The notes below the pieces were generated by a model that saw only the letters and a list, made by a program, of their open reading frames with translations, did no database searches and was not told the DNA's origin. From Raillietiella orientalis (Eukaryota), in NCBI GenBank assembly GCA_036172245.1, contig JAYWIR010000003.1, positions 7,130,001-7,194,000 on the forward strand: DNA of 64,000 bases, read 5' to 3'. Each line of letters starts with the position of its first letter. Within the stretch, counting starts at the first letter, position 1. Shown piece by piece: positions 15,001-54,800 of the stretch. Both the position numbers and the translations under genes were made by a program.

Positions 15001-15060
15001 GAATCCCCCCTGTTCCGTTCGAGTGACAGGGGACTCACAGGACGAAACGCCGGCTTCCGG

Positions 15061-16378: not shown

Positions 16379-16563
16379 CAGATCAAGGGCGTCAGGAATC
16401 GGAGCTGGGAGAGAAAGAGCTGCCGAAGAGGAAGCGTTCTGTTGGTGGAAGATGCATCTTGCAGAGCTTCCTGAATAAGTGATGAGTTGGTGATGCGGTG
16501 CTGGAAGGGTTCCATGTGCGGATGTTATCCATGTTAGATAAGACATTGACGAGCAGGATAACG
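16379..16563. repeat. Direct repeat, copy 2 (185 bp)
   Basis: Constant 1318-bp offset from copy 1. Confidence 0.9.
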
Positions 16564-24400: not shown

Positions 24401-27400
24401 ATCGTCCTTACGTGCCCCTTGAGGATCCCGCGCCAAGGGCAGGCAGACACGTGTCAGGTCAGCAGCACAAGGTGATGGGTGACCCGGTATATGCTGAGGA
24501 CTTCCCCCATTCCTTCGCCGCCCCGCTCGGGGTGCAGCCCATGCGGCGCAGCGTCTTACCCCCGGAGCACTTCCGGTAGCGTCCCTCAGCCAGACTGCCC
24601 ATCCCGATTTTCCTGGGTGATCACTTTGCCGCAGACCCATGTCTAGGGGAACGACGCTGCCAGATAGAGTCTCCAGGCACATGCAGACTCGTTCCGGGAC
24701 GCTTCCGGAAGGAAGTGGTAGAGGATCGTCGCGCCTCCCTCGATTTCCCCTTTGTCCCAATTTTTGCAGGAGCGAGGGGGAAACGCTCGGTGCTTGCGGA
24801 GTGAGGGGGTGACCGACGAGGGATGGAGATCTCGTGGTTTGGTCCAGGACGAAATAACCCTCAACCTTTTATGGCCGCGGAGGTACGAGAGGAGGCTGCT
24901 GTTAAGTGGGTGTCGCAGTCGAATTACGGGCATTGGGGCTCGGACGAATTGCTGAACTTCTCGCCTTGGACCTGCCTCCCATCCGGGGCCCCGTAGGTCG
25001 ATGAAGGACTCCGCTATCTTCACGTGAGGCACGTGCGAGCTGGCGCGGATCGTGGGTTCCCCCTCGAGGGGACCACCTGTCACGCTCGCTTTCCCGAGTC
25101 GCTCCGCCGTCGCTTCAAAAAGGCGTCGCAGCGAGATCGCGTGACCGATCTGGACGGGGCGCATTTCCTCGGCCGGGCTGCGGCACCTCCTTGCGCGGAA
25201 ACGCCACCAAACGAGCGCGTGGACGTCCCTGGAAGACGCCAACGCAAATGTAGCCCCATTCCCCACGCCTCCCTCGCTGATGCGGCGTTTCTCCCGCGTA
25301 AGAAATGGCGCGCGTCTCAGAAGTCCGGCGTGGCTACCGAACGAGCGCAAGTGGCTCTCGTGTCCCGCCCGTCTTCTGCGACAGAACTGGGGGCAAGAGG
25401 GGGGTCTGCTATGAGGATGAGCTGCCCTATGGCGAGTCGAACAGACCCTTCTCCGACCCACCGCCACACTGGCATTCCTTGCCACGTGGGTGTCCTCCGG
25501 CCGGACTGTCTTCTTCCAGTCTGGTGCTCGTGCGCATCCCTGCAGCCGGCAGTGGCGAAGAACAGGGCACCCCTTTGGCGCATCCAAAAGTGAACAGGCC
25601 GGAAATGTCTCTGGGAACACCAGGGTCATGGAGCACCGGTAACAAGGAAGCCTAGGAGGCTGACGGCAGTATGATGGCACAAAGACCGTTCTGATGGCAC
25701 GCATGACGGCGATCCTGAAAAGGGTGATGGATAAGGAAAGTGATGCCGAACGATGGTGGAGATGGTGACAGGAAGACAAGGAGATGACGAAGACGGTGAC
25801 AGTGTCTTTGCTCCACTAGTAGGGGTGAAGGATTTCGTCGAGAGTTCCTTTGGGGGCAAAGTTCCCTCTGGAGCAAAAGCACTCAAATGCGATTATCCCG
25901 GACCAAACGCCGGGAATGCCCCAGAAAGAATGGTCACCGGCCGCCTCCGGCTTCAAGTGCGTCTCTCCCTCTTTAGTGGCGTGGAGGAGGGCGACACCAA
26001 GCGACAGGCCTGTCCCTCCTCTCCTTTCGGCCAGAGTCCGGTCCGTCATCATCTCGTAACCTTTTGCTGTGCTCTGCCCGCCCCCACCAGGGGGATCTTC
26101 TGCTCGCTTCTCGCATCACCCCGCTTTGAGAGGTTTCCCAGGGAAGAGGGCACGCATCGCCTTCGCCCTGCGCTCGGAGGACAAAGGCTTTTTTTTAGCC
26201 CTGAACGCCGCCGATCTCGATCGCGCTTCCTGCGGGCTCTTTGGAGCCGGGACTTCCTTCCTCTTCTTTTTCTTCTTTTCGCAGGCTAAACTCGGAGAAG
26301 TTCGGAGGCGCTTGGTGCCCGAAGGAGCGCATCTCCGAGGTCGCCTACGAGTACCTGCAGGTGGACCTCCACGGTCTGTTCGTCGTCACCGCCGTTTCCA
26401 CGCAAGGTCGATATGGAAACGGGATGGGACTGGAATACATGGAGCAATACAGCATCGAGTACAGGCGCTCTTCCCAGGAAGCCTGGAAGACTTACAGGAA
26501 CGCCGCGGGCATCAAGGTGAGAGAGACCTGCGTGTAGCGGACTCGCGCGCCCCCGGCATGCAGTTTGCTCTTTCTTCGCACGTCTGCAGCGCAAGGAACT
26601 CCCGCAACCGGCTGCTCCGGCGCCTCCTCGTTGCCCACTTCAGGGGGGGGAAGGTTCCGAGACCCCTACTGGGCGGCAGCGAAGCTCCGAAACCTCGGCT
26701 CATCAGCATCCTATGCGACCTTTCCTCTGGTTCTTCGACGCGCGCTCTGCGGAGAGACAGCCGGCATCTCCCTCTCTTCGTCTCTCTCACTCCCTCTGGT
26801 GCGAAAGTCACGTCCCACCTTTCCTCTCCTACCTCTCTCTCCCTCTCTCTTCGTCAGCAGTCCAGGCGCTGATCTGGTTTCTGCTGGCAGCGACTTTTTC
26901 GGAGATCGCGCGCAGAATCTCTCCTCCCAAAAGGACCCTTGGCGAGGGTTTCAAGAAGGATGAAGAGAAGGCGCCTACCTTCTAAAGAAGTCCCAATGGG
27001 CAGAGTCAGAGGCATCCAAACGACCAGGTGCTCAAGGCTTGCAATTCCTCCAGGAATCCAGAGGTCGCCTTATACTCCGCGAAATGTGCGCACTACTCGA
27101 CAGGAGAAGGAGCAACCAGTGCGGACCTTCAGAGTTCCTCTCTTTCGATGATTTTGCTATTCGGTTGGGAGTGAGGAGAAACAAAACGAGAAAGTGTTTG
27201 CAGAGAAAGGGGGGAAAGGAACGCCCTTCAGCTCCTGGAGAAGAGCGGTTTCTTTCATCTCCTGCTGGCCAGCTTGGGCGGCTTCCTTCCAGGGTCTGCC
27301 TTCGGTTTTCTCTTTCTTTGCCGGGATCTCGACAAAAGCGGGGGCCTCCTTCTTAAACTCACACCCTAGAATGGGACGCGGATCTGGGAGGAGTCCTGGC

Positions 27401-30400
27401 TCCACATCGGACTTTCACCAAATTCGTCCCCTCGTAGACCGAACCGTGGAGGAATGAGCGCATGCGTCCATGCCATCCACTTCTCTCAACAGTAATCGCG
27501 GCTTCTGAGGAGCAACAGCGAAACCATCAAGGACATCAAAGCGTGCGCTCCATGGCACCTTTTGCCGTCGCTAGGAGACAGTCTTCTCATCATGGGAATG
27601 AAGGGGAGTTACCTCGGCTCATCTCAATGAAGTCTTCCTTCTCCCGGAAGAGTAGGCTTCAGCGCGGCGTGGGTGAGGTGGCGGCCAAGGGGCTGCCGCA
27701 GTAGGAGGTGGGTTGCCTGGAGCAAGGGGAGGGGGGCAGGATGACCCCGAGGAAGTGGTTCCTCCACGGCCGCAGGGTCTTTGGGAGGTCTAAGATTTCA
27801 CGAGAAAGGCGTCGCGCGTTCCCGATCCAGACAGGACTCAGGAACTTCCTCCTTTCGTCTCCAGGAAGCCCTCAGATGGGCCTTTTGCTGTCCCTTCCCA
27901 CGAATCAGCCCTCACGCCCCTAGTTGAGCCAGTGGTCTTCTGAAAGCAGCAGGGTCTTATGAGGGACCCTTCGGTCCAGGAGGCTGCGACAGATATTTAC
28001 CATCGCGCCCTCCTGAAGACGAGAAATGGGAGGAGCAAAGCAGGAGGATGGGAATGGGAGGACCTGGCGGCCGGCCTCTCAGGTGGGGACGCCGGCGAGC
28101 CTTCAGGCAGTGGAGGCATCCAAGGACGCAGCGGCGTGGCATAGAGGAGAGGGGCGGGAAAGGGAGTGGCTAGAGTGGGGTCTCAGCTGCAAGCCTCATG
28201 CCGAATTTCTTGCAGCTCCTGGAGGGTAACGCAGACACGACGAGCGTCAGGACGAATCGGCTGGACCACCCTCTGATCGCCAGCGCGGTGCGCGTGGTGC
28301 CATACAGCAAGCACGGACGGACGGTGTGTACCCGCGTCGAGCTGCATGGATGCAGCTTTCCCGGTAGGCGGAAATGAGAGTGGGGGAAGGAGGACAAGGA
28401 CGGACGGCACGTGTGCAGCCGCGTGGGGACGCTCCTGCGTCCGGAGGGATGAGGTGGGGCGTGGCGTGGAGCTATGAATGAGGGGCAGAAAAATACGATG
28501 ATCCTGAATTTCATACGGAGCACCGGGGATTTGGGGTGAGCGCGGAGTCGAGCTGCTGGATAGGTGAGGCAGATTGGATGTAATGGGCGGGTTAGGGAGA
28601 GAACGGGAAGGGAGGAGGTAGAGTGGGGGTGCGGTTGCTCATGGGTAAGAAAAGTTGGGATGAGGAGAAGGGGACGGCATGCTGGAGATGGGATGAGCTA
28701 CGGCTATTAGCACGGCGATGAGCAAAAGGGGTGCAGCAGCACAAGTAAGGATGGGGTCAAGAGCTGGAATGAACGCCAAATGCTTCACCCCAATTCGGCG
28801 GAACAGATGTAAACTCGGACAGAAGACGGGATCAGACGAGGTCACACACTGTTTGATGTGTAAGAATTGGCATATTGGGGTGATGCGGCTGGAGGGAGAG
28901 GGAACACGAGGGTGGAGAGGAGGGTACAAAATGGCTAGGAGAACTCGAGTGGGCTTGGCAAGGTCGAGGAGTAGGGAAGTGTGGGGGAGATCGGGGTCGG
29001 ATAGAGGGGTGAACTGGAAATGGGCCAGAGAGGAGGATAGAAGGGGCAGTTCTCCCCATGCTTCCTTTTTAGACGGCGTGCTAAGCTACGACATTCCTCA
29101 GGGAACGGAGTTTCCCGGGGCCAACCTGACCTCGTCCGCCTCCTGCCTGGACTCCACCTACGACGGGAGGCAGGTGGGGAGGTTTCTGTACGGAGGCATC
29201 GGGAAGCTTCTCGACGGCCACGTGGGTGACGGAAGCAGCGCCGGAGACTGTGAGTCTTCTGCCGTGCTTTTTCTCGTCTTCCCTACCCTTTCCTCTCCGT
29301 AGGTTTGAGGTGGGTCGCCTGGGAGCGCACTCAGGAGCCACTAGTGCTGGTCTTTCACTTCGACTCGCCGCGGCGCCTCCTGTCGGCCACGTTCCACGTG
29401 AATGTCCGACCGGAGCTGGGGATACAGGTAGGGTTTAGTTGGAGCGAGCAAAGAGGGTCCATCCCTCCCTTCCTCGCAGGCCTTCCAAAAGGCGCGTGTG
29501 TTCGTTCTCGACGGGGGAAAGGCGGCGAGTTCCCGCGAGAAGGAGGCCGCTGTGGGTATTCGGCACGACTCCAGGAGGACAGACATCCCTCACAACGTGA
29601 CCATCCCTCTGGGGGGACGCGTCGGTCGGACCGTTGAGCTCGAGCTCTATCCCACGAGCAGGTGGACTATGATCAGTGAGGTCTTCTTCAGCAGCAGCGG
29701 CAGCAGCTACGGTGGTCAGTGCATGCTTCGGAGAGATGGGGGAGGAAAACAGTGGGGGATGGTGGTCACCGCACCTCCTATCCAGAGGCTATCGGCGAGG
29801 ATGGGGTGGCCTTTGCTGCTGCTGCTGCTGCTTCCGAAGTCGATGTCAGGGGGGAGTCAGCATCCCCTTCAGCAGCCGAAATGACCTTCGCAGATGAACT
29901 CCCTCCAGTATCCACGGAAACGATCCTGCTCCTGGAGAAAGGTGAGAGCTGACCCATCCCAGACACGGCGGGCGGAGAAGGGTCAACGCACTCGCCCTTC
30001 CTTTCCAGACGCCTACAGCGATCGCGACCTCACGTACATGGGCGTAGTCATCGGCTGTTTGGCAGCGGTGGCCCTCATCACCTCCGCAACCGTGTACTGT
30101 GTCGTCCTGCGCAACCAGAAGCTGACGGCCCACGGGTCGCCTCGGGTGCTTTTGGAAGATGCCAGGAAGTTCGCGTTCGGCACGAACCAAGTGAGAAAGA
30201 GTGAAGAGTTGGGATGAGACGGATGTTCAGGATGAGGACGGGATGAATCTGGATCGCGATGCGCCTGGGAACGGTGGGGCTAAAAGTCTGGTGAAAGAGG
30301 AACGAAGGCACAGTTGGTCTTAGGATGTGCGCGAGGGAGATCACGGGGCGAAATTAGAAGGATTGGGGGGTGATGCCCTCTGGGGAATCGGATCTGAGGG

Positions 30401-33400
30401 AATTTGTCTTTATCTCTTGTCCCTCTCTTGCGAGCAGGTGACCTGCGACGACGCTGAGGACCGCGTGGTCGTCAAGGGCAGCTGCTGCTACGTCAACCGC
30501 ATCTACGAGACCCCCACGCCTTCCTGGAGGACGCTGCCGAGACCGTCGCTCAAGACGAGGAAGCGCGCCACCCCAGGAGGGGGTGGAAAAGGTGAGGATC
30601 CTATCTGAACCTCTTTCACACCTCTTCCCGCTTTAGAGTTCCCGTCCGATCACGAGTACGTGTCCCCGGAACTGCTGCCCCTGGTGGAGGTGGCTCAGAC
30701 CACCCTGGAAACCACCGAAGACGACAATGATGACGACGCGAGCGGCGCGGCGAGGACAGCCCCTACGGAGGCGTCATCCTTGGACCTTGAGCGGCCCCCG
30801 AGACACCCCCGGGGAGCGCACCAGAGCGTAGTCGCCTCCCCCTCTCCCGTTCCGAACGACTTACGGCGTCTCAGATGGAAGGACGTGCGGGTCGTAGGGA
30901 GGCTGGGGGAGGGTTCCTTCGGAGAGGTGGGTCTCCTGCCTCATCGGGAAGAGTGGAAGCATGACGTGGCGATTCCTCCTTCTTTTAGATCTACCTCTGC
31001 GAGCTACCGGGACTCCTGGACTCCTCTGGGAGACCCGTGCGGGCGGCCGTCAAATCATTCTCCCCTCCTTCCGCTCCATATCGCCCTTCCCTTCCCGGAT
31101 CTAAGAGAAGGAAGGGGGTGAGGAACGGTGGTGTGAGATCGGAAGCCACCGAGGAGGCCTTCCGGGAGGAGCTTCGCGTCCTGCCACTCCTGCGCCGCAA
31201 CCCTAACGTCGTCCAGGTTTACGGCGCCATTTGCAGGGAGGAGCCGTCGGCCATCGTGTACGAGTATCCGGGTTCCGGAGACCTCAAGCAGTTTCTGGTC
31301 GAGGGTCTCCGCGAAGACTTCAAGGTGGACCCCCTCCGCAAGTATGTGACTCACGCGCGGGCGCAGCGAACGCACAACCCTGCCAAGGGCCTGGGATGGA
31401 CGGGAACATGGTCCACAGTGCCAGCTCGTCGCCTCTCCTCCTGGCTCCCACGGGGGGTCTCCCATCCCTTTGGATTGCTCCCGGACGGCAGCAGTCTCCC
31501 TTATCAACGGCCTGTAGGAGACCATCGGGCTCACCGCGGGACGCCCGTTCCTTCAGAAGGAAGGTCTGATGGAGGGTGCTCTTTCCTTAAGTGTCCGACC
31601 CCATTTCGTGTCTGCGCTTTGTCTGCCGATCCAAAGATCCCTCCACGCGCCCAGAAACCAGCCCAGTCGCTTCGACTCTGCCGGAATTTCACTCTCACCT
31701 TCCCCTCCCCGCCAAAGATCCTGGTCCCTCTTTGCTCCTCCTTTTCCTCGCATCACCCACGCTCGCCCCCGTTCCTCCTTCTACGACCCCATCCGACCTC
31801 TTTCAAGCTCCCCGGCCACGTGGTGGTGCGTCTGCACTCTTCCGCACTCCTCAGATGTGGTGAGAGCCGCCGCATGCCGGAGGTCCGCCTGGTCGCTGCG
31901 CTACTTTGCCTCAGCAGTCTGAGTGCCTCGCGCCACGGGAAGGACGAGCGCAGGCAGGTCACGGCGGACGATCAGTACTCTACCTGCTCCTCGCTCCCAT
32001 GTCCTCCCGGGATGCGGTTTGCTTGCTCGCATGGCCTCCGGGAAAAGGGAGGGTTCTTCCTGGTGTTTTCTTCAGAGAAAATCGAGAGGAGAGCGGATTT
32101 TGGAGAGGGCAATGTCGAGGTCCACCCAGTCTCATGCCGGAGCACCGAAGTGCACCCGATCTCGCGCCACGCGCTCATCCCCGACTCCCCAGCCGGGTGC
32201 TTCGCCAGCGAGGCCCCTGCTTCTGTCGCGTAGGCCGCCCTTCCCCTTGGGTCTGCTTCTCCCGCCCCTCATCTCCCGCTCTCCTTCACCATTCGACCCA
32301 GCATCCACAACGGATCCACCCTTCCCCGGAGGAATCGGCGAGAAAAGCGCGAACCCTTCCTTCCGAGTTTGTTTTCCTCGTGAGGCGCAGCGGGGCAGGA
32401 ATGTCTCACGGCCTCCAGGGGAAGGCGGGAATCCCTAGAGACCTAGGAACCCCCCGTGCGAGAGACTTTCCCACACTGTTCCGTGGAGCAGGTCGTTGGC
32501 TCGGGCAGCGCGTCCTCTCTGCAACCTGCTCTTGGAGGTTTTTCGAAAGCGAGGAGGTCGGAGGTTTCCTGCTGGGCCTTGGAAAACCAAAGCTCTCATT
32601 CTCTTCCCTTCTCATCCCTGAGGGTGCCGTTCGGGCCACGCCCACTCGCGACAGCGATCCTTGGCGGCCAACTAAACGCATTCTCGTTCCAGACTGCTAC
32701 TCTACTTGGTTTCAGAGGTGGCAGCGGGGATGAAGCACCTGGAGTCGCTAAACATCGTGCACCGGGACCTCGCTGCCAGGTACCGGGGAGCCTTGGGAGC
32801 GCGACCCGCCTTTTCCCCTGCCAACCAGCGCGACCCTCATACCTCGCCTTTGTCTTCCCACCCAGCTAGCAGTCATTCCCATGAGCCCAAATGAATGGAC
32901 TGCTTTCGTCCTGGCCTCGTGGGGCATGGGTCTCTCATCCGGGTGCAGGTCCCTTAGCACGTGCGCCCGGGTCTTTGCTATTCACTCCCTGAGGAAGACC
33001 TTCTTGCTTGCCGGTAGTCCGTTATGTAGGAAGCTGCCCGACTTCCGCTGGGTCCGGGAAGGAAGGACTCAGAAGCATCAACAAAGGACCCTTTCCCAGA
33101 TTCACCATCTTGCGGTCCATTCTGTCTCTCCTTTGTAGCGCCTGCAGCTTAAGCGCGCCTCCTCTTGCAAGCTGCACAGGCTGTTCTGCACTTCCCTTCT
33201 TTTCCTTTCCTCCTCCTCCTCCGTCTTTTTTCTTCCTTCCCCTTTCTTCCTCCTCCTCTTCCTTTCCTCCTCCTCCTCCGTCTTTTTTCTTCCTTCCCCT
33301 TTCTTCCTCCTCCTCTTCCTTTCCTCTTCCTCCTCCTCTTCCTTTCCTCTTCCTCCTCCTCTTCCTTTCCTCTTCCTCCTCCCGTCCACACCCTTGCGCC

Positions 33401-36400
33401 ACAGTCCTCTTGCTGACCGATAGAGTTCTCTTCCCGTTCAGGAACTGCTACGTCACTAGCAAACTGACGGTGAAGATCGCTAACTTCGGGCTCGTCAAGG
33501 GACTCTACGAAGAGGATTACTACGACGTAGGCGGAGGACGTTACATCGCTGTGAGATGGGCGTCTCCGGAGGCTGCACTCCAGGTACTGCCCTCCGTGCT
33601 GCTCCACTTTCACCACCACTCTCTAAACCGTGATGCACCTCCTAACCCCTTCCCCCTCCTTGAGCGTTCAGCCGAGCGCCTTTTGCAGTCCCTTCACGCC
33701 CCGCGGGGAGGGGAGCGAGGGACAGAGGCGTTGGTTCTCGAGGGCGGAGAGTGGTCAGGATTCCTTCGTCATCTGACTGGAGGGCATCGATAGCATGTTA
33801 CCCTCGCCTCGGAAAGCTCTCTCCAGAGTCATCCCCAAGCTCCTGCATCTTCCGCGCGGTGTTGGTTGTCGCTGCCGCTTGTCAAGCCTACCGTCACCCT
33901 TGAGGAACAGCAGATGAAGCGGCTCCGTGGTTCTCCCCGTTCGGTTCCTAAAGATCTAGCGGGAAACCTCCGACTTTCTCTTCCCTTTCGGGAGACCATC
34001 AAGAGAGGGGAGGGACCACTTTCTTGTCTCTCTCAGCATCTCCCAGTTTCCCTTCGTAGGTGGGAGGAACGAGCGCTGCAGCGGGAACTGTCGTGGAGCC
34101 TCCGCAGGAGCAAACGATTTCTGTTGCCGCAGCCGCTGGGGCGGCACGGAGGACGACCTAGGAGCAGAGCAGCGGTGTGACTCCCGGAGTAGGAAAACAT
34201 CACTTGTAAACCGGACATCAACAGTGCTCCTCTGATGCCTGGTCCTGTCTCCGCTGAATAATCCGAAGCACTCGTTCCTCGGACACATTCGCCTGCGGGG
34301 GGTCGTTCCTAAAGGGGGACTTCTGTAGACGCGCGCAGATGCGCTCCTCCGGCAGCACTGCGAGGGAAAAAAGGGTCCCGTTCCTCTGAGCGCGCTGTCC
34401 GAGGTGGGCTGGGAACCGCTTCCCCGCCACCGCCTGGGGTGGGCAGCAGCGGAATTGTGGGAGAGGGAGTCTGCAGTTGCTGAGAATCCGCAGGCCCGAG
34501 AGCGTCGGCAGCACCCCATGGAGGAGTTGCGCGGCCGACTGCCCGAGAGGTCTTCCCTCCTGGGAACCCACGGAACTGCTGCAGAAGGAGGGGACCTCGG
34601 GAAGAGGGACGAACCTCAGCAAGAACCAGCACGTCTGCGAGCGCCATCCAGTAGCCGTCGAAGAACTCGCACCCGAGAGAGGAAATCTCTCCAGGAAGCA
34701 CCCCTTACTCGTGGAAAAGAGAAGAGTAAGGGTGTGCAGGGCAAACGCTTGGACTCGGTCCCTTCCGGTGGGACTTCCGGGACAGGCAGACGCGGAGGGA
34801 GAGAAGCGGCGAGGTCTCAAAAAGGACGAGACGAACCCACGTCCGGAGAGCCTCGGGATGTAGGATTGGGGCGGAGAAGACGCGAGTTTTTTGCTCCCCC
34901 TATCGGACGGTGAGGAGAGCTTTCCCCCTGCGAATGCAGAGCCGGGAATGCCATCCGTGCGCTCTGGGAGAGGGTGGCAGCGCGCGCGCTCTTCCCTCTC
35001 TTCCGCGTCCATCAGACATAACCCGGCTGTGCTATCTCTTTCCCGCCCTTTCAGGACGCCTACTCGACGAAAGGAGACATCTGGTCATTTGCAGTCACGT
35101 TCTGGGAAGTGCTGACCTTGGGAAGAGTCACTCCTTACGAAAGCTGGACCAACGAGGAGGTGCTTCAGAACATCGCGACCTTTTCTCAAGACGCAGACGT
35201 GCAGGTGAGCTGGGGAGGGTTTTGGGGGGCGCCACCTTGAGACCCTTTGAAAGCCGTTGCCGCACAGAGCTCGGATCCGTGCCTCCGGAGACGTGCGGAT
35301 TAGCCCTGGGCCTGTTGTTCCCTCCAGCAGACACACAGAGAGGGAGAGAAAAAGGGGAAAACCCACGCATCTCGCGAGCAGGGATTTGGAAAACATGGGA
35401 TACGGTGGGAGGACCATAGAAGGAAGCTTCGCTTCTCTGGGTTTGCTAAAGAAAGCGATGAGAGTGGCGTCCTTTAGAACCAGCGTACGCGTGAGAAAGG
35501 CATCGGGATGATGCAGGATGCGGGCGTGGATGAGAAGCATCCCCATGGAAGGTCTTCGTCCTCCACCTGTTGAGTCCTCCTTTTACCTCATTCCTCCCGG
35601 GAGCACCTTCATTCTTGGATTCGCTGTACCTCGCAATCGTCCCCTTATCCTCTTTGTCTGAGGGACCAGACCTACGGGTCACTTCCAGCGAAGACCTCCT
35701 AAGCGAAGGTTTGCCCTTGTCGGTGGCTCCTTCGGAGTTTGCATCTTTCTTATCACCTTCCTGCCCTTTTCTCAGTTGCTCTTTTTCGTAAGGCGCCGGA
35801 GATGCGTCTGGCATTCATCAGAGATGCTCGGTCCTTCGGCTGCCGAGTCCCTTTGACCCTCCAGATTCGCTCGTCCAGGACCTTTGCTAAAAGAGCGCGG
35901 TGGGGCCTCTTTAGGTCTTGGGGGTCGGGTGGCTTGGCTGCTTCCTCTCTCTTAGCAGGCGCACCCCTTTCCATTCCCCTTTCCAATCCTCCTCTCCTGC
36001 ATTCGGGTCATCTGGAAGTCCGGAACCCATCAGCCTTCTTTCCTGCTTGGGAGGCTTCCGGAGCAGTCGGAAGGGCAGTTGCCCCCTCCTGACACTTGAA
36101 GCGCGCGATTTTCTGACTTACAGATGCGAAAAGCAGCGGTGTCTGGGCCATTTCCTCATGACAGAGGCCGATCCTGGAGTGCGACGTCATGTGGCAGAGT
36201 CTCCTTCACAGCGCGCCCGTCGTTCAGGAACTTGCAGACGTGCCCGGAGGCAGCAGCAAGCCCCAGAAATCGGTCCCAGAGAGCTACCCGCGCGTTTCAA
36301 AGCCATCCTGGAGCACCTTGGGATGCGCTTCGCTGAAAGTTCCGTGCGTTTTTCCCCCTTGCTCCAAAGCTGCTCCCCTTTTTCCTTTTCCACTTTCCAT

Positions 36401-43765: not shown

Positions 43766-45559
43766 TTTCTTTTCGGCCATCATTGCTGAGAGGAAGGCAG
43801 CGAAAAATATCCGGGATCCTCCGACCACTGTTCTTATTGCATGCGGTCGAACGGAACCTCACGGATGGCTCGTAGAAGAGTCCAGAAATTCGTCTTGACG
43901 TCGACGGAGTTCTCGTTATCAAGATTTTGCCAAACTTCTCAGACAATTTGCAAGATTCGTGACGTTTCAGAAAATACAGACGAAACGCTATTCATCGAAA
44001 TGATAGTAAATTACACCACGAGTACGGAGTGATGAAGAAAGAACGTTAGTATGAAGCATTTCATCTGTACAGATAAAGATGCAATAAATATTCAGCTTGT
44101 GAAGATGCAACGAATACTCAGCCGAATTGAACTGGAAATAGGTATTCATGGTTCCGTTATGTAACACGAATATATTTAATTAATTGGCCACTGTTCCATC
44201 AGTGGGTCTCCTGGCATGCAATGTGGTTCAGAGCTGAGGCTCTTCTCCACTTTACGGACACCATAAATTTATACAAGTGCACAACACTGTACAACCCAAC
44301 AGGGGTCGGTGGAAATGGGATGAAAATATGCTTCCGTAGGAACGAGTGAGAACTGAACGAAGGGGGTAATTGAGATTTCTAACCTTTGACGTTTACATGC
44401 ACCATTTAATATGAAAAGGAAATGATAAGTTTGCTGACATTAAATTGAAAAATAATGGAAGTCATTGTGATAAGACAGAGGGGAGGGGGGCGGGGGCTGC
44501 TTGAAAGCGGTTGCACTTGAGACAGCTCATTGGATTATTAGAATTATCTTTTCGTTGATTTCATGAAACGGAACTGTGCAAGCTGGAATTTCTTGTTTGT
44601 GGAAGGGAGAGGGGAGATTCCTTGGTTGATGGGAAACCAATATGGCAGGGAAGCACGCACCGACTTCGAGATCCCATTGTGCCGTTAGCAGCACTTTCAC
44701 ATTTCGTGCTCCGTTCGTTTCGTGCACGTTTCAAAACCATTGATTGAAGTTGGCAGCATTTGGTTTTGGACGCCAGAAATTATCTGAACTGATGCCAAAG
44801 GTGAGACTGAACGCGAAAGTCGCCATCAGTATTTCTTATCTGTAACAAAACGAAAGGAAGTGTTCTGTGGTTTGCTGGCTTCGTACGTAGGCATCACAGA
44901 AAGGTGGTGATTGCATGTAAGACAGAGTCAGGTGCTCCGCTACAGTCGGTGAGGGAAAGAAGAGATGGGGAAGGGAACAACACCCCACGTTAGCAGTGGT
45001 GAGCCCGGAGTTGGGTTTCGCCATCAGTTGCCTCCGACCTGCTGGGTGATCCCTCCGGCTTCTCTTCGTCTTCTCCTTTTTTCGACTGATTGGTTTCGGG
45101 AACCTTTCGGGATCCTTTCGTGCATCTTTGTTGAGGTTTTGAATGACAGTGCATTTCCTCGAGGAAGGATGGGAGCAAGGAGACCGGGGGATGAAGTTTG
45201 GGTCTGTTTTGCAGCAGAATGAAACGAAAGCATTATCAGACACCCTGACTCGGATGAGCCAATAAGTGCAGCACTAATATGATGGAATTTTATTTGGGAT
45301 TGACAGTCGCAAATGATCTCTAGTTGTTCAGTTATTATGATGTGCTCATTTTTCTTCTGATAAAGATGTCATAATAGATACAATTGTGAGCTTCCAAGTA
45401 TCTATGATAGGGTCTTAGGTAAAAATTCTATCATACATATCTCTGCTTTTTAATAAGAAGTATTTAAGAACTACTACTTGAATTTAGTGGGAATCTCAGA
45501 ACAGAAGGATTGGAATGAAGGGCTGAGCAAAAGTTTGCTTAAAACATTCCGTCAAGATA

Positions 45560-46350
45560 TCTTCTCCCTATGATTAATACCACTTGGGGTCTGCTCGTGG
45601 ATGGAGGCTCAGCTGTGGGTTTTTGACTCTGCTGAGGTGCTTAGGTGGCACATTTAATTGGTAGCGTCGATGAAGGATGATTCTGTTGGTAAGGATGTCT
45701 TCTCCTGTGATGCTGGATTTAATGTTACAGTCACAAATCTGCAGTAGGTTTAGGCGGCGAGAACACTCTTTAGAGCTGTGTGCTGCTTGGCTGCGGGATA
45801 AGCGACGTGAGAAAATCAGGAAACGCCTCTCGCGCAGATGACAAATTCCTGTACAGTCAGCTACCTCCAGGGCAGTTGATTCCATAGGGAAGACTGTGAT
45901 CCGGAAATGAGGAAGAAAGTCACGTGAGGAACAGCAGAGTCGCGAAAGGTTCGAATGAATGCGGAATTTCGCGAGGTCAGTGTAGAATTAAGAAACTGCA
46001 AGCCTTGGAGGAGTTGCAGCAGCAGTCTCTTCGACCAGAAATCCTACACGATTCGAGTTCAGCTGGGCATGATCTTCACTGGCAAATCCATCTTTATCAG
46101 TTGGGAGAACCCTTTTGGCTCGGAATGAGTAGGCAATTAAAGTGGCTTTTTGACTGAGCTTCAAAGTGTGTTGGTGGTGCTACAGGCATCGTTAGAGGTG
46201 CCGAAGAAGTTTCCAAGAGTGCTGTATGTAAGTGAAGCGGAAAACTTTATCTTGGGTGCGATGGCGGCGGCCATGAGGAGCCACAGAAGGTAAGCACGCG
46301 GTGACGCAACTTTTAGACGATGGTACAGCTTGCTAACAAGTATTGATTAG
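45560..46350 (+). mobile_element. Decayed CR1-like LINE reverse transcriptase
   Basis: Colinear remnants across frameshifts and stops: SVDEG, LDL, AAWLRDKR, LQGS, ECGIS, WQIH, LVVL..SL, AENFILGAM, YSLL. The order follows the CR1 RT motifs. Confidence 0.45.
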
Positions 46351-46759
46351 TAAACATGAGTCTCAGTGTAACAGTAAATTTGGAACTGACGAAGGAGGGG
46401 CAATCTAGGAAGCATGTATGCAATGTTGATCTCACACATGGGTGAGGAACAGGAAGTAGGATCACTGCTGCAGTGTGCTCCACAGCTCAACTGGTTTCTT
46501 ATGACAGGTATACGTGCAATGGCTGTGACGTAGGGAGATATGAATTTATGCCAAAGTAAAAAGCTCGCAACATGACTGACACTGTGTACAATAACAAGAG
46601 CACTGATGCAAGTGAGTTGTGGTGTCTTCACTGAAGATCAATGAAACCAAAGGGCGAGAGTGACGGTTTTCATAAGGTGAGTTGGAGCTGGGTTTACCAT
46701 ACAATGTGGAGTATGAATACCGTGTGTTCGCTCTCTTATTTGCATCAGAATATGAATTT

Positions 46760-46765
46760 TTTATT
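46760..46765 (-). terminator. Candidate polyadenylation signal of the helicase-RBR gene
   Basis: TTTATT on + (AATAAA on -), about 280 nt past the stop; the region is AT-rich, so a chance match is possible. Confidence 0.35.
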
Positions 46766-47044
46766 TGCTGAAGGGTGGTTAGAGGCTTGCATATGTGAAG
46801 TGAGTTCAGGGGATTGAAAGTTATAATTTCATGACGGAGTGAATCCATGCCATTATGAGAAGCATAGTACATTGCACATTTTGTTATGAAGTGTGAAGTA
46901 CTCACAGTTGAGTAATAAATAACTAAAGAATCCGTTTATCAAAGACAACATGTTTCAGAATATGTGAAAAGAACGAAAACTTACAAATTTCTCCATAAGA
47001 AACTATAATTAATTCATGGAATCTGTGAAACCCAAATCTGTTTA

Positions 47045-47230
47045 CTACTGCCCTTTCTCACATTGGTGCATGTGCACTGATGACTCAGAATCAAAGCAGT
47101 GCATGCAATCCCAGCACAAAAATGTCTTACACTTGGTGCAATGCACACTTTTGCACCCACCAGTTTTCTCAATTGGGGAAGTGCAGTTTGAGCAAAATTT
47201 GTGACATAGTGGATTTTTACGCATCCATTC
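47045..47230 (-). CDS. Helicase-RBR exon 6 (RING2/Rcat, stop)
   Basis: ctgcag| EWMRKNPLCHKFCSNCTSPIEKTGGCKSVHCTKCKTFLCWDCMHCF...HMHQCEKGQ*. Confidence 0.92.
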   Translation of the reverse strand, partial: EWMRKNPLCHKFCSNCTSPIEKTGGCKSVHCTKCKTFLCWDCMHCFDSESSVHMHQCEKGQ

Positions 47231-50200
47231 CTGCAGAAGAAAGGCATGAAAATGAAAACGTTGGACTATCATACCTTCATTTCAGGATCCAAGGACTTCT
47301 CACACATCATGCCCGCAGGATGTTGCGTGTGGCAGCTACTAACATAAAGCTTAAACTTACGTTAGACAAATTTACCTTCCACATATGCGCTGTAAGCAGA
47401 AATAGCATGTTATCATACTCCTTCCTGACCGTAAAACCCCTTCACATGAAGGCACTGGGCAATTAAAGTATGCCTTGTTGCTTAACACAAAGTTCCTCAG
47501 AGCTATACCCTGCAAATCTTTTAGCATTTCCAAATTGCCAGTAAGTGAAGTGATATCCTTGATCACCCACAAATTGGTGCAATTCTGAAGAAATAAGAGT
47601 CGATGTCTGCAATCAATTAGATATACAGACACACTTCCATGCAACACTTCAGAGGGAGTATTTTGTTCTGGACTGAATACTGCAGCTGTGATAATATGCA
47701 AAGCCGGCAATACAAGTGACCACAATACTGCATACGATAGCTCTTTGAATCAGGAGTTACCGGTAACAAACACACAGGGCACTCTTCAGCTTGGAAAACA
47801 CTGAATTCGCTGGTACCATGTGCAAGTCCTTGCAGTGGCTGTGCGACCTTCTTAACAATATCCTGCACCTAAGTTCTGGATTAATAGTGCTGTCCCAAGA
47901 ATGTGCTTACATTTTCAATGGCCTTTTCATCGCCAACAAGCAGCAAACTATGTTTCCTAAAGTTAATCCCAATGCTTAAGCAGCCTGATTGTTGAACAAG
48001 AGTCTCCAAAGTGCACCCATACGTTTTCACCAAGGAGTGGAGCAAACCTCTGGGAAGACCATGCCCTACCATCGGAAAGTCTACTACTTTCCGTTCAGAG
48101 AATTCTGCCACAAGACTGAAACATACAATTGCAGATTCACTCTCACTACACTCTTTCTCAAAGCAACTGTCAGTCATCCAAAGAGGGAGGAATTTCTTTG
48201 GCAGGAAATGCTGCAAAGCAACAACAATCAACTCCAGTTCCCTGTATTCTCCGTGGTCTCGCGATAATCATACTATATCTGAGATCCTGATGAAGTATGG
48301 TTTCTTATTTTCATCAGAATACGAATTTTGTGCAATGCTGCACAGTATATAGCATGATATGGTGATATAGTATGATTTGTGCACTTCCATGATTCAACAC
48401 TTCATAGTCTGGTAAAAAAAAACTGTAGTCAAAGCAATCCAGAATACAATCGCATGCTAGCAGAAAGTGGGAATAAGATTCACGACACCCAACAGAGGAA
48501 CTATGCATGGCATAATGAAGCTTTTTAGAGCAATTAATTTGCTATGCTTTGTGTCCAGGACTATCCAAAGATAACAGGGAATATATCTTTTTCTCGCCCT
48601 TTCCTTTTGCCTATCCCTAATATCTCTGCATATCCTGAATTAAAGCTTTCTGTTAAGAAACCAAGCTGAAATGTGCAGCTCTTACCGTTCGATAGAATGG
48701 TGGGCTGCGTTCACATCATCATCTGCTCCATATAGCACAATTTTCATCATGGACTTTTTAACATCAATCACAGTATTGGTCTTTTCTTTTATTCTTTGAA
48801 GGTAGGACTGCCCACCCAAAGTCACTAACTTTTCATAACCACCTTCCCTGCAGTCTATGGCCTTGCCTCCCGTGAGTCGAAAGAGCATGCCTTGCACTGT
48901 TAGCAGCTGCTCAGTATTACCCCCACTCAGTGTAAAACGCACCCTCCCATTATTCAACACTCTGTACTCCAGAGATATGCCCTCCTTTTTGACATTCTTC
49001 TGAATGCTGACTAGGGATGAACTGATAATTTGTTGCACTTCCTTTTTCATAGTAACAATCCAATTCAGATCTATCTCCACCATAAGTGGGAAGTGTGGTG
49101 AAATTTCTGGTACGATCCTGTTGTCTAGAGCTTTGAAGACCTTCAAACTGTCCTCTTCATTGCGCAGCACCATCAGGACACGGGCGTCTTTTGCTTTGGG
49201 AGAAGTTTTCAAAGACACAATTTCAAAGTCCAACGAAGGCATAATCCTTTTTAGATGTCGCTCTAACATTTGAGGCAAATTATCCATCGATATTACCTCC
49301 CCCATAGGGAGAGACAATTTTAAATCATAGGAGAACCCTTTTTGAAACAGTAAGTTCTTGAGAGTTTTTTCAGACATCAATTGAGGAATGCTTTTGACAT
49401 ACAACGTGTTGATTCCCTTTTTTGACAAAACAACATCAATGGAACTTGCCAGCTTCAAAGGTAAGTGAGCACAAGCAAGGATATAGTCAGCATAATCATC
49501 AAAAGTAATGAACCCATACCCTTTATTTCCACGTTGTTGCACTGATACAACCAGCTTGTGTTTGGAATCCTGTTTCATTTTCATTATATGACCTGGGAGA
49601 ACTGTCACGTTTTCTAAATGAAAGTTTTCCACCACATTTTTGGCTATTGCAAATTGTGTGAAACATACAATTATTTTACGGACATCTTTCATATCCGTTT
49701 TATCCTCATAAAAGATCTTAGAATAAATCGGTGTACCGTAAGAACAAAGTGAATCAATTATCTGCTGTGCCTGTAATTCGCCCTTTACTCCAGTTATTAT
49801 CACTTCATTGTATTCCCCTATATTCAGTATGTCTTTCACAGTCACTCCTGCTCCCACAATGTAATCAGACTCAACTCGATTCATGGACTTGTCCAATAGT
49901 GGAATCCTCACACATTCACCCATAAGCTCCTGCTGTTTTTTCATAATATCAGCCTGAACAGCAGCAATCAGAACCTGAGCAGCTTCTTCTTGAAGTAGTT
50001 CATATAAAATCTGCATGACACCTTCGTCAACTGAAAGGGAAATGTAACAAATAGATGGATTCAAGGCTTCACAGAATGTCTGTCTAAGTTGATTCAGTTT
50101 ACTACCCTGATGGCCTATGAAAGATGACAACACACTGTTGCCTATAGGATGCAATGTTACAACCTTGAACTTTCTTTCCATTACTAACTTAACATCTTCT

Positions 50201-52788
50201 ACATATGAAGGAATCCAAGCCACTAGTCCTTCTGCAATTGCTTCCTTAACTACAGATGCATCAATGGGAATCACATTACACATGAAGTCTTGTGAAGTAG
50301 TCAAAATATTGTCAAACAGCAAAATAGGTGGATCAATCTTGCCTAGAAACATCAAGGAGGAACCAGGATGAATGAAAGCAATCTGTTGCAGATTTGGTGA
50401 ATAATAGCCAGGATTCAAAAGTGGAAGACGAAAACCAATAGTCCAAAAAAAGGAATGTAAGAGTAATTTCTTAAGGCGACGCAGCTTTGCTGCATCCATA
50501 CTTGTGAAATGCATGTTGATTTTCATCTTGAAGTCATATTCCAAGATAGATTTGACCTCATTCACCATTTCACGACAGTTCCTCAATATTCGTGCATTCA
50601 AGTAATTCTGGCAACACCACGCTGACTTAGTCTTTTCATCTACTTCACTCCACTGTTTATACACATTGATATAAGTAAGAAAGTCACCTTCTGGTGAACA
50701 GAATTGTATTTTCTGAGCATCTGCTTTTTTCACATCATCCTCACTGCCAACACGGAAGAATACAGTAGTTGCCACACTCATTATACATGGAAGCACTATT
50801 GCTTCCATTTGAAAATCCCCTTTAATTCCCATAAGAAGCAATTTGGCCAATCGTGGTTCCATTGGAAACTTGGACATTGCAAGACCAAGTTCACTTATTG
50901 ATCTTGGGTGTCTACTCACAGCCCCTAGCCTCACCAGATTTGCCAATGCATTCTCCATGGCAATTTTCGATGGGCAATCAAGAAAATCAAATTCAAACGG
51001 ATTGTGGATTCCCAAGCTCATGAGCTTCAATAAGGCAGACTCTAAGTGGACAGTGAGGATTTCTGGCAGAGTACTGTCTTCCATATTCTGATACTGAGCA
51101 ACAGAATACAGGCAGAAACATTTTCCTGGCTCTGTTCTTCCTGCCCTCCCTGATCTCTGATTAGCTGAGCTTTTGCTAATCAGTCTCAAAACCAGTTGAT
51201 TGACACAAATTGCAGGATTGAAAATCTTCTGCTTACACACACCAGAATCTATAACATACTTAACTCCATTAATTGTTATTGAAGTCTCTGCCACATTAGT
51301 AGCATAAATAATCTTCCTTTTCTGTGCAACATGCTCAAATACTTTTTTCTGCTCCTCCACTTGCAGTCTTCCATGTAGTTTATAGATTACCATTTCTTTG
51401 CTATCAGGATGTTTTTCAAGCAACTTTGCTGCTACTTCAGTGTCATTGGGAGTGGGCAGAAACACTAATACATCGCCTGAAGCTTCTGTTTTGTGAATTT
51501 CTAATGTCTTTTTAACAGCTTCATTTACATAATCGAAATTTTCATCTGTACATTCAGCTGTGTATGTAAAATGTATTGGATATGTGCGGCCAGGAATTTC
51601 TAAGACAGGGCAATTATCAAGATAGCATTGTAACTTATACGGATCTAAGGTGGCTGAACTAATGATTACTTTCAGATCCTTCCTGGAAATCAGTGCTTTT
51701 TTGACCATTCCAAGTAAAAGGTCTGTGTTCAAACTTCTCTCATGAGCTTCATCAATAATGATACAGCCATAGTTGTTGAAAAGAGGATCTGATGCACATT
51801 CATTTAACAAGAGGGAGTCTGTGATGAACAAAATCCTCGTTTCACTTGATTTTTTAATCTGATTGCCAACTTTATATCCAACAGTGCGACCAACTGTTGA
51901 TCCCAATTGCAAAGCAACATACTGAGCCAGCGTGATAGCTGCAATCTTTCTTGGTTGCGTGCATGCAATCATTTTGTTTATAGTATTAGAATTGTATAGA
52001 TATTGCACCAACTGGGTACTTTTACCGGAGCCAGTTTCAGCAGACAGGACACACACTCTGTGCATCTGAAGAACCTGTAGTATTTTTGATTTCTTGCAAT
52101 AAATGGGCAAATCTTGCTGAAAACTTACGCACTCCAAGGCAAAATTTTTGTAATAATGGTACAATTCTTTTTTGAAATCAGCATACTTTGGTGCATCCAG
52201 ATTTGTGACCTTCTCAACGATTTTTGCAACTGAAGAGTTAAATTCACTTTTTTGATCTTCCAGTCTTTGCATTCTATACTGCTGCATGTCAACATCTGTA
52301 AGCTGTTCGAAAGTCTCATCACTGATTTCAAGTTTTTTTAATCTATTTCTTGCTTCCTCCAGTCTGATGTTCAAATCAGCTACCCTTGCCGAATGACTAC
52401 CGAGGCAACAGTTTTTATGGTACTCTATCTTGGCCAAAATTTTTTGACGGTCAGATTCTTTGAAATCCCTTGCTTGTATGTGTTCACACACCTTCCAAGC
52501 TATTATCTCTACTTTGTCGGATTGAAAATGCCGGCACATATTCACGAAGTGGGAAGCTTGCCTGTTGCTCGGGAAGCTCAGCACTCCTTCGACGAAATCT
52601 TTACTTTCTTCCATCCTCGTTACCTCCCACTGGACTTTCCAGCCCTTGAAAATGTTCAACACGTAGTTGCCATTTATGGGGGTCGAAGTGGTGGGTCTGC
52701 ACATAAACTTGATGCCGACATCCGGTACAAAATCTCTATTCTGAAACTGACGGTGCGGCGGCACGGCTTTTTTGCGAAAGTGGCTCAT
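47045..52788 (-). CDS. DEAH-box RNA helicase / KH / RRM / RBR E3 ubiquitin ligase fusion (DEAH11/12-like), 6 exons, 1665 aa
   Basis: Exons 52788-48686, 48115-47911, 47868-47635, 47584-47376, 47335-47275, 47230-47045; GT-AG, phases 2,0,0,2,0; total 4998 nt. Helicase motifs AETGSGKST, TQPRKIAA, DEAHERS, SAT, FLP, TNVAETSITING, QRSGRAGR, then HA2 (MSKFPMEPRLAK) and OB (IHPGS). RING1 CPVC..CGHLYCRLC..KCCMENC; IBR CPVPSC..CYFCLQRICGSCHTQH...C; RING2 CSNCTSPIEKTGGCKSVHCTKCKTFLCWDC. Confidence 0.93.
47275..47335 (-). CDS. Helicase-RBR exon 5 (IBR end)
   Basis: ttagtag| (S)CHTQHPAGMMCEKSLDPEMK |gtatga; completes the IBR Zn ligands. Confidence 0.82.
47376..47584 (-). CDS. Helicase-RBR exon 4 (RING1 end, IBR start)
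   Basis: NCTNLWVIKDI...YFNCPVPSCEGVLR...ITCYFCLQRICG. Confidence 0.9.
47635..47868 (-). CDS. Helicase-RBR exon 3 (RING1)
   Basis: EECPVCLLPV...YRMQYCGHLYCRLCILSQL...LPLKCCME; an in-frame alternative acceptor lies 6 nt downstream. Confidence 0.9.
47911..48115 (-). CDS. Helicase-RBR exon 2 (KH-like linker)
   Basis: tttcag| LVAEFSERK...LPRGLLHSLVKTYGCTLETL...LLLVGDEKAIEN |gtaag. Confidence 0.88.
48686..52788 (-). CDS. Helicase-RBR exon 1 (4103 nt: N-terminal region, DEAH helicase, HA2, OB, KH/RRM-like modules)
   Basis: 1368-codon ORF ending at donor CG|gtaag; all SF2 DEAH motifs intact (DEAH codons 51753-51742). Confidence 0.96.
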
Positions 52789-53279
52789 CTTCTTGCACGG
52801 AAACTTTTTTGTCGTTGTTTTGTCCTTTTTTTTTCACCTTCCCATCTTTTCTCGCCGGAGCAATGCAGTCGGCTTGCACAGCACAACCTTCGGACCACAG
52901 TGCTGCTCTGCTGATGCTGATGCTGCCCGGCTGCCACGAGTCACATCACCGCCTGCATTGTTCGTCACTCGTTCTGCGTGACCACCCCGGCCCGAGGAAC
53001 CGGTTGAGCAAACAAATCTCTCACCCAGCGGGCAGATAAGATAAGGTCACCGTATCGTGTCACGTCGAGCATTTGCAAGGCATCGACAAAAGAGCCAAAA
53101 CAAACGCCGCGAAGGCGGCGGCATTTTTTTTTTTTTTTTCTTTCAAATCTTTGCCAGACGACCCGATGAAATATTTGATGATCGCTTCGTCGGAGTACAA
53201 AGTAACGATTTCCTCGGGACGAAAACGGCGGGTGAATTTTCTTTTCCTTCTTCCTTTTTAATGTAGAGAGCGGTGGACC

Positions 53280-54800
53280 AATGATGTCAAAGAGAAATTT
53301 ACAGACTCTTGGAGAGTGAACTTATCTTTTTAGTCCTTGGCAATTGGCATTTCGGAAACACACACTTCCGCTTATGTCTGCGAGTCGACCATAGGGGGAG
53401 AGGAGGAGGTCCCACTCTTACCCCAACAGCCCGAGTTATGAACCTGGAAAGAATAACCGGAAATGAATGCTTTCAGCTTCGAAATCGAAGCATGAAATTT
53501 TTCCGTTCTCCATGAAATTCTGAAAGAGTATTCGTAGCTGACAACGTGGCTAAAAGGTAAGAACTTCATCCAAGGAATCAATTTTAGTTCCGGGGAATAA
53601 TCAATTCATTTTTCCCCCTGTGAACAACATGGACTTGAAGAACCAACCACATCCTATTATGTTTTTTTTAAATGATGGTGAAGATGATAAGTCAAGTGCA
53701 CCTAAGGTCGTAATTGCAGCATCAAAATGAATCGGGACTGCAGCAGGAACCAAGTAAAAACGCTATGAAATCAATGAATCACTTCTTGGAGACTACAGTC
53801 CACGTTATCACGAGTAGCTGTTGTAATCTTGCCTTCTGTGGTCGGGTTCCTCATCAGCTACCCTCAAAGATGATGGCCACTCCCTTCAGAAACGGACATC
53901 CGGCTACACCGAAGCCCATCCATGCTCAAGCTGGAGCTCTTGTCGATCCACAAATTTAGCATAATGGAGTACTTGGCGGCACGGAAAACTTCACAAAGTC
54001 CACCAGAACAGCCTCTTACGAGAAGGAAACTGCTGAAATGACCAGAGTTTTCAGGAGAGATCGAGGGAGGGGTCGTTGGAGATGCAATTAGTGGCATTGA
54101 GAAGCCCACTGTCGAAAGCAAATTAGGAGGCAGTGTGAAACTTCATCGCGTCAACAGAGGGCAGATTTGCCTGAATTCGTAGTGTACATGCATCTAACGA
54201 AAAAAGGAGGGACGCCGTATTCAGTGTTCATTCAGGGAACTTTATGGCTCCAAATGCCACAAGTGAAGGTGCAGCCGTTCTCAGGGAACTTATTTCTGAG
54301 CAGGGAAGAACCAGAAGGCCATTCCTCTCCCTATAAGAAAGGCGGAGCACAAAATGAGACGGACCAAAATCGGTGTTTACCGATGTTCTGTTGCAGTACC
54401 AACATTTCTCTGAATGGAATTTAACTGAGCGGACCATTAGAAGAGAGTAGAGAAGAGGAGAAGTTTGGTGCCTGAGCGAAGGGCTGCTTATGATCTCATT
54501 TCGTTGGGCGCGAAGGAATGCTATTTCTATCGACCTACTTTCATGATTACAATATCGGCACGAAAACTGAGGGTGGCAATCAGACGGCAGCAGCCCATCC
54601 CTCGCTGATGATCCGGGAGAAGAACAAAAGGGCGAAGGGAAAAACTGAAGAAAGGGTATCAAAAAGAACGGAAGAATAGTATCCAAACTGCCCCAGGAGA
54701 GTCTCCCATGGTTTCCTGGGAGCTCTCTGAAAGGGAGGATCCAAGAACTTTTGCTCAGTACGGAATTGTTTCAGGAAAATCACCTCAGTTCACGAGGTAA
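53280..54800 (+). mobile_element. Decayed CR1-like LINE (endonuclease to RT)
   Basis: TDSW; RVDHRGRGGG (like FR.DR.GRGGGV); ITSSCCNL (like LTSVCCKL); IMEYL; EGGVVGDAI; YSVFIQGT; RNCFRK, all in CR1 order. Confidence 0.45.

Follow-up and report, generated by a model that had tools for sequence, protein, structure and literature searches.

Does the DNA studied here encode an RNA helicase fused to a ubiquitin ligase in an animal, is such an arrangement new, and what might the protein do? These questions are raised by a gene on the minus strand of a 64,000-nucleotide stretch of Raillietiella orientalis DNA (hereafter the window; assembly GCA_036172245.1, contig JAYWIR010000003.1, positions 7,130,001 to 7,194,000), which a preliminary description made from the sequence alone had read as a DEAH helicase joined to a RING-between-RING (RBR) E3 ligase. 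We consider it likely that this is a genuine, probably functional single-copy gene for an RBR ligase of the ‘Helicase’ subfamily (Plant I, DEAH11/DEAH12-like) in a poorly sampled animal. As read from the DNA, one spliced frame is predicted to encode a DHX8/PRP22-like DEAH core, HA2, OB, RRM and KH modules, and RING1-IBR-RING2 with the active-site cysteine. The gene is a strongly diverged further member of an old, widespread and described family, not a new kind of system.

Gene model and domain architecture

The minus strand contains an open frame of 1383 codons (48682–52833), a length far beyond chance because about 6% of random codons are stops in DNA of 40% GC. It is followed downstream by short frames with Pfam matches to KH_DEAH11, RING, IBR and again IBR. 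Introns were placed by reading the DNA under the guidance of an alignment with homologues. The six resulting exons join into 4998 nucleotides that encode 1665 residues plus a stop codon, with no internal stop. The exons and introns, in the order of transcription, are:

48686–52788, minus strand: exon 1, 4103 nucleotides (residues 1–1367 plus 2 nucleotides); N-terminal region, DEAH core, HA2, OB, RRM-like and two KH-like modules
48116–48685, minus strand: intron 1, 570 nucleotides (GTAAGA..CAG); read-through meets a stop after 1 codon
47911–48115, minus strand: exon 2, 205 nucleotides; KH_DEAH11 domain (Pfam, E 3.6e-12, 46.2 bits)
47869–47910, minus strand: intron 2, 42 nucleotides
47635–47868, minus strand: exon 3, 234 nucleotides; linker and RING1 (C3HC4, starting with CPVC at 47781)
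47585–47634, minus strand: intron 3, 50 nucleotides (GTGTGT..CAG)
47376–47584, minus strand: exon 4, 209 nucleotides; end of RING1 and first part of IBR (Pfam IBR, E 8.7e-5)
47336–47375, minus strand: intron 4, 40 nucleotides
47275–47335, minus strand: exon 5, 61 nucleotides; end of IBR (CHTQHPAGMMC)
47231–47274, minus strand: intron 5, 44 nucleotides
47045–47230, minus strand: exon 6, 186 nucleotides including the stop; RING2 (Rcat; Pfam IBR_1, E 1.5e-5)

All five introns have GT..AG ends, and retention of any one of them brings a stop within 1–9 codons, so that the RBR would be made only from spliced RNA. Removal of intron 3 restores the C-x4-C end of RING1 that is typical of the family. The joined frame reproduces the ends, the 1665-residue length and the five junctions of the preliminary description, and bears out its remark that the list of open reading frames (ORFs) displays the helicase only, with the RBR emerging after splicing. 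The four introns of the RBR part (47231–47910, minus strand) are only 40–50 nucleotides long and have canonical ends. A neighbouring gene resembling the discoidin domain receptor DDR has a 62-nucleotide intron, and introns of this small size are apparently usual in the genome. Short contigs from a single DNA run were identical to the window at 47114–47264, 48156–48293 and 49665–49866, with neither joints nor variants. Downstream of the coding sequence lies a possible end signal:

46760–46765, minus strand: AATAAA, 279 nucleotides past the stop codon, a candidate poly(A) signal

The first exon encodes the helicase part. In Pfam, DEAD scores 33.2 bits and Helicase_C 60.4 bits, both exceeding the family cut-off, whereas HA2_N, HA2_C and OB_NTP_bind each come in slightly under theirs. 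The features mapped in this part are:

51133–52080, minus strand: helicase core (DEAD plus Helicase_C), residues 237–552
52032–52015, minus strand: motif I, GSGKST, in the helicase core
51753–51736, minus strand: motif II, DEAHER, in the helicase core
51159–51136, minus strand: motif VI, QRSGRAGR, in the helicase core
50248–50949, minus strand: HA2 (residues 614–706) and OB fold (residues 772–847), from Pfam matches just below cut-off and alignment with solved DEAH helicases

When aligned with 108 homologues, the protein shows motifs I, Ia, II, III, V and VI, and a sequence search of the PDB returned DHX8, DHX16, PRP22, PRP16 and PRP43 at E values of 1e-125 to 1e-118 over residues ~198–849. 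The core, HA2 and OB therefore resemble those of DHX8/PRP22, DHX16/PRP2, DHX38/PRP16 and DHX15/PRP43 over ~650 residues, with all ATPase motifs, whereas the spliceosomal DEAH helicases lack the ~800 residues of RNA-binding modules and RBR that follow OB here. Those ~800 residues with RRM, KH and RBR rule out a DHX8/PRP22 orthologue despite the similarity of the core. The ‘DHX8’ label carried by some family members (for example P0102 and P0079 in our list of matches) reflects core similarity only.

Between OB and the RBR we identified a series of putative RNA-binding modules:

49105–49896, minus strand: RBD/RRM-like modules, residues ~965–1228, mapped from Pfam RBD_DEAH11, RRM_DEAH11 and RRM_1 of the homologues P0003 and P0040
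48688–49056, minus strand: two KH-like units, residues ~1245–1368, mapped from homologues, Pfam and a structural model

In this stretch Pfam gives only weak matches (RRM_1, E 0.004; KH_1, E 0.001; KH_DEAH11_2nd, E 0.044), and the protein differs from its homologues in that neither its RRM part nor its first KH module reaches the Pfam threshold. An AlphaFold2 model of residues 897–1367, built with an alignment of 48 homologues as input, has a mean predicted local distance difference test score of 87.8. Its top Foldseek matches in the PDB are the tandem-RRM proteins HuD, HuR, Prp24, raver1, PABP and PUF60 (E ~1e-5, probability 1.0), and the last 130 residues of the model form two beta-alpha-alpha-beta-beta-alpha units, the order of KH type I. 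The KH_DEAH11 domain of exon 2 (residues 1380–1448) scores well above its Pfam cut-off of 27 bits and immediately precedes RING1.

The ligase module occupies the C terminus and was mapped through the homologue alignment:

Residues 1466–1515, minus strand: RING1
Residues 1541–1595, minus strand: IBR
Residues 1613–1656, minus strand: RING2
47153–47155, minus strand: codon of the presumed catalytic Cys1630 (in EKTGGC), in a column that is at least 90% Cys among the 108 homologues

On single exons, Pfam finds zf-C3HC4 in exon 3 (22.5 bits against a cut-off of 21), IBR in exon 4 (23.0 against 24.3) and IBR_1 in exon 6 (25.2 against 27); the last two are below threshold because the domains are cut by introns. 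The alignment with the 108 homologues shows no zinc ligand missing from RING1 or RING2, and the cysteines of IBR and the catalytic cysteine are likewise in place. The position proposed earlier for the catalytic codon was exact; it corresponds to residue 1630.

A diverged member of a known family

A search with the exon 1 protein against proteins of similar length gave 2802 matches at E ≤0.001 among 8000 candidates scored. The best 120 of these have E values of 4e-188 to 4e-150, most with a query cover of 80–100% and a length of 1500–2400 residues, and at least 104 of them combine helicase families with IBR families (PF01485 and/or PF22191). Source names were attached to 35 of the 120 best matches; 33 are animal species, among them a brachiopod, bivalves, gastropods, an annelid, corals, a crab, a spider and amphioxus, and the other two (P0109 and P0120) bear no organism. 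No vertebrate or insect, nor any non-animal organism, is named among these 35. When seven full-length homologues were aligned to the DNA by tblastn, the segment pairs were collinear through exon 1 and the RBR exons. Six of the seven had 28.9–32.4% identity over 1267–1492 columns of exon 1, and P0102 gave two segment pairs there (45.8% and 26.6%).

The homologues are matched by Pfam families named after Arabidopsis DEAH11 (RBD_DEAH11, RRM_DEAH11, KH_DEAH11_1st, KH_DEAH11_2nd and KH_DEAH11), and several bear the NCBI name ‘ATP-dependent RNA helicase DEAH12, chloroplastic-like’. These Pfam and NCBI names point to a link with DEAH11/DEAH12. The order of DEAH core, HA2, OB, RBD/RRM, KH, KH_DEAH11 and RING1-IBR-RING2 is that of the animal ‘DEAH12, chloroplastic-like’ proteins and, as judged by family names only, of Arabidopsis DEAH11/DEAH12, and the length of 1665 residues compares with 1635–1742 for typical members of the subfamily. 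Membership is further indicated by the DEAH/RHA core with its ATPase motifs, HA2 and OB; by DEAH11-type RNA-binding modules between OB and the RBR (from the KH_DEAH11 score and, for the RRM part, the model); by the C-terminal RING1-IBR-RING2 with its ligands and RING2 cysteine, despite the histidine deviations considered below; and by full-length collinear similarity to accepted members. The domain order and the DEAH11/DEAH12-type kinship put forward in the preliminary description were therefore correct, as the joined frame and the Pfam DEAH11 families indicate.

The novelty that it implied for this architecture in an animal does not hold, as at least 104 of the 120 best matches are of the same type and length, and the subfamily had been published in animals. 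In the available text of two studies, ‘Helicase’ (Plant I) is one of three RBR subfamilies common to animals and plants, has a DEAD/DEAH helicase domain and was lost independently in multiple animal lineages (PMC2904391, PMC3087547); its occurrence in both kingdoms was thus reported by 2009–2010. Both the animal proteins of the same length that combine helicase and IBR domains and these papers by Marin indicate that the architecture was already known in animals. The other two shared subfamilies, RNF14/ARA54 and Ariadne (PMC2904391, PMC3087547), have the same RING1-IBR-RING2 catalytic module, but their accessory domains are described in the available text as RWD or Ariadne rather than helicase and RRM/KH (PMC2904391).

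A looser likeness connects the protein with other enzymes that combine nucleic-acid-dependent ATPase activity or RNA binding with ubiquitin transfer in one polypeptide. ATPase-E3 fusions include the SNF2-type HLTF/SHPRH/Rad5 and RNF213; MEX3 is an RNA-binding RING E3 (KH plus RING) and ZNFX1 is a helicase. The similarity is in logic only, as these belong to unrelated helicase/ATPase families and their E3s are plain RING or RZ fingers, not RBR. Among RBR ligases proper, those of the RNF14/ARA54 and Ariadne subfamilies have known regulation and substrates.

Compared with the subfamily members that we found, this copy is strongly diverged, with 29–33% identity overall and 40–45% in the core. None of the near-length proteins exceeds 33% identity across most of the length, and higher values are local, reaching 46% on 32% of the query. 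No closer relative was detected among them, nor among the shorter proteins searched with residues 850–1368, and a protein atlas yielded generic DEAH helicase clusters. The helicase core is 39.8–44.9% identical to each of 18 named homologues, and no phylum is favoured. In the full-length tree the protein falls outside a well-supported lophotrochozoan clade, a position to which a long-branch warning applies. Neither the full-length nor the core tree assigns the protein to a phylum: in both it stands as a long branch without a firm position, and its grouping with the spider sequence may be an artefact of long branches. The divergence spares the conserved positions for the most part: of the 200 columns with an identity of 90% or more in the 108 homologues, 169 are kept, including motifs I–VI, the RING1/RING2 ligands and the catalytic cysteine.

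Three observations concern other members of the family. A protein named for the crab Petrolisthes (P0021) nests inside scallop sequences with full support, which suggests contamination of the crab assembly or a transfer. Adjacent paralogues occur in several invertebrates, such as Patella caerulea (tags 004162/004163) and Mercenaria (LOC123554058/LOC123554061). A related helicase, P0028, has OST-HTH and NYN domains in place of the RBR.

Proposed activity and alternative readings

By analogy with its relatives, we propose that the helicase and the RRM/KH modules would bring the enzyme onto RNA or a ribonucleoprotein (RNP). The RBR would take ubiquitin from an E2 onto Cys1630 and pass it to a protein on or near the bound RNA. 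The enzyme would thus be an RNA-directed E3, with ATP hydrolysis by the helicase perhaps serving to remodel the RNP or to move along it. The interest of the family lies in its direct joining of an RNA helicase to an RBR ligase, in its absence from the usual animal models and in a biology that can be tested. Earlier work on the evolution of RBR ligases had already asked what the family does, and the locus adds nothing new on that point. Its value is modest, namely a six-exon model of a very divergent member from a lineage without close relatives in the protein collections; such a copy could serve as an outlier for mapping the truly indispensable residues of the family.

Alternatively, as the preliminary description proposed, the RBR may be autoinhibited and switched on by RNA binding or ATP-driven helicase action, with the protein serving as a sensor for defence against viruses or transposons or for RNP/ribosome quality control. 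Other RBRs, namely Parkin, HHARI and HOIP, are under autoinhibition, and the KH_DEAH11 domain stands directly before RING1. The family is multicopy in bivalves, limpets and corals, with some adjacent locus tags and long branches, a pattern that is often seen in defence genes, yet is not specific to them. However, the gene is single in the window and not part of an array, and the literature searched yielded no functional study of an animal helicase-RBR member. A cotton DEAH12 was treated as an RNA helicase with a transcription factor as its binding partner, in a study whose available text mentions ‘ubiquitin’ only as the name of a promoter (PMC13407882). We regard a gated sensor as unlikely.

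A more specific version would make the whole family an RNA- and ATP-gated ligase for RNA surveillance or antiviral/transposon defence, with this fast-evolving single copy, from an animal lineage not otherwise sampled, as a specialised sensor whose RNA-binding modules were re-tuned while the catalytic cores were kept. The changes read as re-tuning are the altered family-invariant residues of the OB region (G789P/H790L) and of RRM_DEAH11 (W1083V/R1085Q), which, like R559C, lie outside the catalytic motifs. We offer this version as speculation and hold it to be unlikely.

Several points weigh against a functional ‘Helicase’ RBR ligase, and some of them would equally suit a decaying or re-purposed copy that yields mainly a helicase-only product, or an RBR without E3 function. 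The joining of the six exons, and with it all five junctions, is drawn from sequence and homology, and the predicted helicase, RNA-binding and E3 activities all derive from family membership. The terminal branch of the protein in the full-length tree is 2.41 against a median of 0.3, and among the near-length and shorter proteins searched no relative is near enough for a test of purifying selection. The other 31 of the 200 highly conserved columns carry substitutions; many of these are conservative, but several fall at positions that are 98–100% conserved (R559C, G789P, W1083V, R1085Q and F386L). In the RBR, the alignment with the 108 homologues places the IBR histidine one residue away from its usual column, and RING2 reads GGC-K-S-V-H-C in place of the GGC-N-H-M-x-C of most members, so that the histidine two residues after the catalytic cysteine is lost; this histidine is only ~60% conserved in the family. 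The changed invariant residues of OB and RRM_DEAH11, the shifted IBR histidine and the missing RING2 histidine set this copy apart from other members.

For a decaying copy, it also counts that read-through of intron 1 would leave a 1368-residue protein with the helicase and the RNA-binding modules. Against it, the reading frame is maintained through six exons and 5 kb, the splice sites are canonical, and RING1 and RING2 have lost none of their zinc ligands nor the catalytic cysteine, all of which would be unexpected for unconstrained DNA of 40% GC. We therefore give decay or re-purposing little credence, and continue to favour a functional ligase gene.

The compositional island and its surroundings

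The gene lies in a part of the window (44000–54500) that forms a compositional island, with GC of 0.36–0.47 and an observed/expected (o/e) CpG ratio down to 0.05–0.4 in the gene body. Over the gene body as a whole, GC is 0.36–0.42, GC at third codon positions (GC3) is 0.41 and CpG o/e is 0.39, against GC of 0.56–0.65 and CpG o/e of ~0.8–0.9 in the rest of the window. At the 5′ end of the gene there is a stretch of different character:

52501–53500, no strand assigned: CpG-rich stretch with CpG o/e of 0.94–1.23, a possible promoter island as judged from its composition

A CpG-rich 5′ end followed by a CpG-poor body is consistent with a transcribed, germline-methylated gene, but germline methylation restricted to this gene body would not by itself explain a GC difference of 20 points. 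An origin of the island from a mobile element was considered and rejected, as we found no direct or inverted repeats flanking it and no transposon or other Pfam domain in its 23 ORFs.

The contrast in composition could also mean that the island is foreign DNA, arising by assembly chimera, contamination or horizontal transfer. Such an origin would fit the drop in GC from flanks at 0.58–0.62, the lower GC3 (0.78 in the DDR-like exons) and CpG o/e (~0.85 outside), and the lack of a close relative of the protein among the near-length and shorter proteins searched. We consider it very unlikely: GC shifts gradually over ~3 kb on each side without a sharp edge, the repeats and transposon domains sought around and within the island were not found, the 62-nucleotide intron of the DDR-like gene outside the island means that short introns are not peculiar to it, and the protein is about equidistant from all sampled phyla (39.8–44.9% in the core), so that no donor is indicated.

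The DNA outside the island is almost without recognizable coding sequence or repeats. In Pfam searches at E 1e-4 of ORFs with 75 residues or more, two sets of 150 and 149 ORFs from the segments 1–18 kb, 35–44 kb and 54–64 kb had no match at all, and 1 of 123 in 18–35.6 kb did, a discoidin exon of the DDR-like gene; the 421 other ORFs of this size scanned outside the island gave none. A further 27 plus-strand ORFs, set aside from the scan of 18–35.6 kb, lie in a span that a separate Pfam scan covered. The only other recognized gene in the window is this DDR-like receptor (26306–33580, plus strand):

Near 26.3 and 28.2 kb, plus strand: discoidin exons (F5_F8_type_C, 36.2 bits)
Near 29.1 and 29.5 kb, plus strand: DS-like exons (DDR1-2_DS-like, 36.4 and 33.5 bits)
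30.9–31.3 and 33.4–33.6 kb, plus strand: kinase exons (PK_Tyr_Ser-Thr, 29.6 and 34.5 bits)
30927–30988, plus strand: intron, 62 nucleotides

The neighbouring DDR gene named in the preliminary description is thus present, with discoidin, DS-like and tyrosine kinase domains. The placement of the DNA in a metazoan, which had been argued from that neighbour, agrees both with the DDR-like gene and with the 33 of 35 named helicase-RBR matches that come from animals, none being from other organisms. The exon pieces of the receptor have the GC3 of 0.78 given above. Its kinase has NFG in place of DFG and may therefore belong to a pseudokinase or to a gene in decay. The receptor is also very diverged. 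A word-indexed search with a DS-like exon gave no match, and an exhaustive HMMER search with another DDR exon gave eight weak matches (E of 4.5e-5 or above), of which the two to the DS-like part, P0125 (43%) and P0126 (42%), set the upper limit of identity to any cluster representative. The absence of close relatives, for the helicase-RBR and the DDR-like genes alike, suggests a group that is either sparsely sampled or evolving fast. A polypyrimidine (TCC-rich) tandem array occupies 33195–33411, within an intron of the DDR-like gene.

No tRNAs were found in the window. The only Rfam match is to U4 small nuclear RNA at 18724–18799 on the minus strand (57.7 bits against a gathering score of 46); the match spans 76 nucleotides of a 138-position model and is probably a truncated copy or pseudogene. 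A 184-nucleotide element is present in two copies (15060–15243 and 16378–16561) that are 84% identical and 1.3 kb apart.

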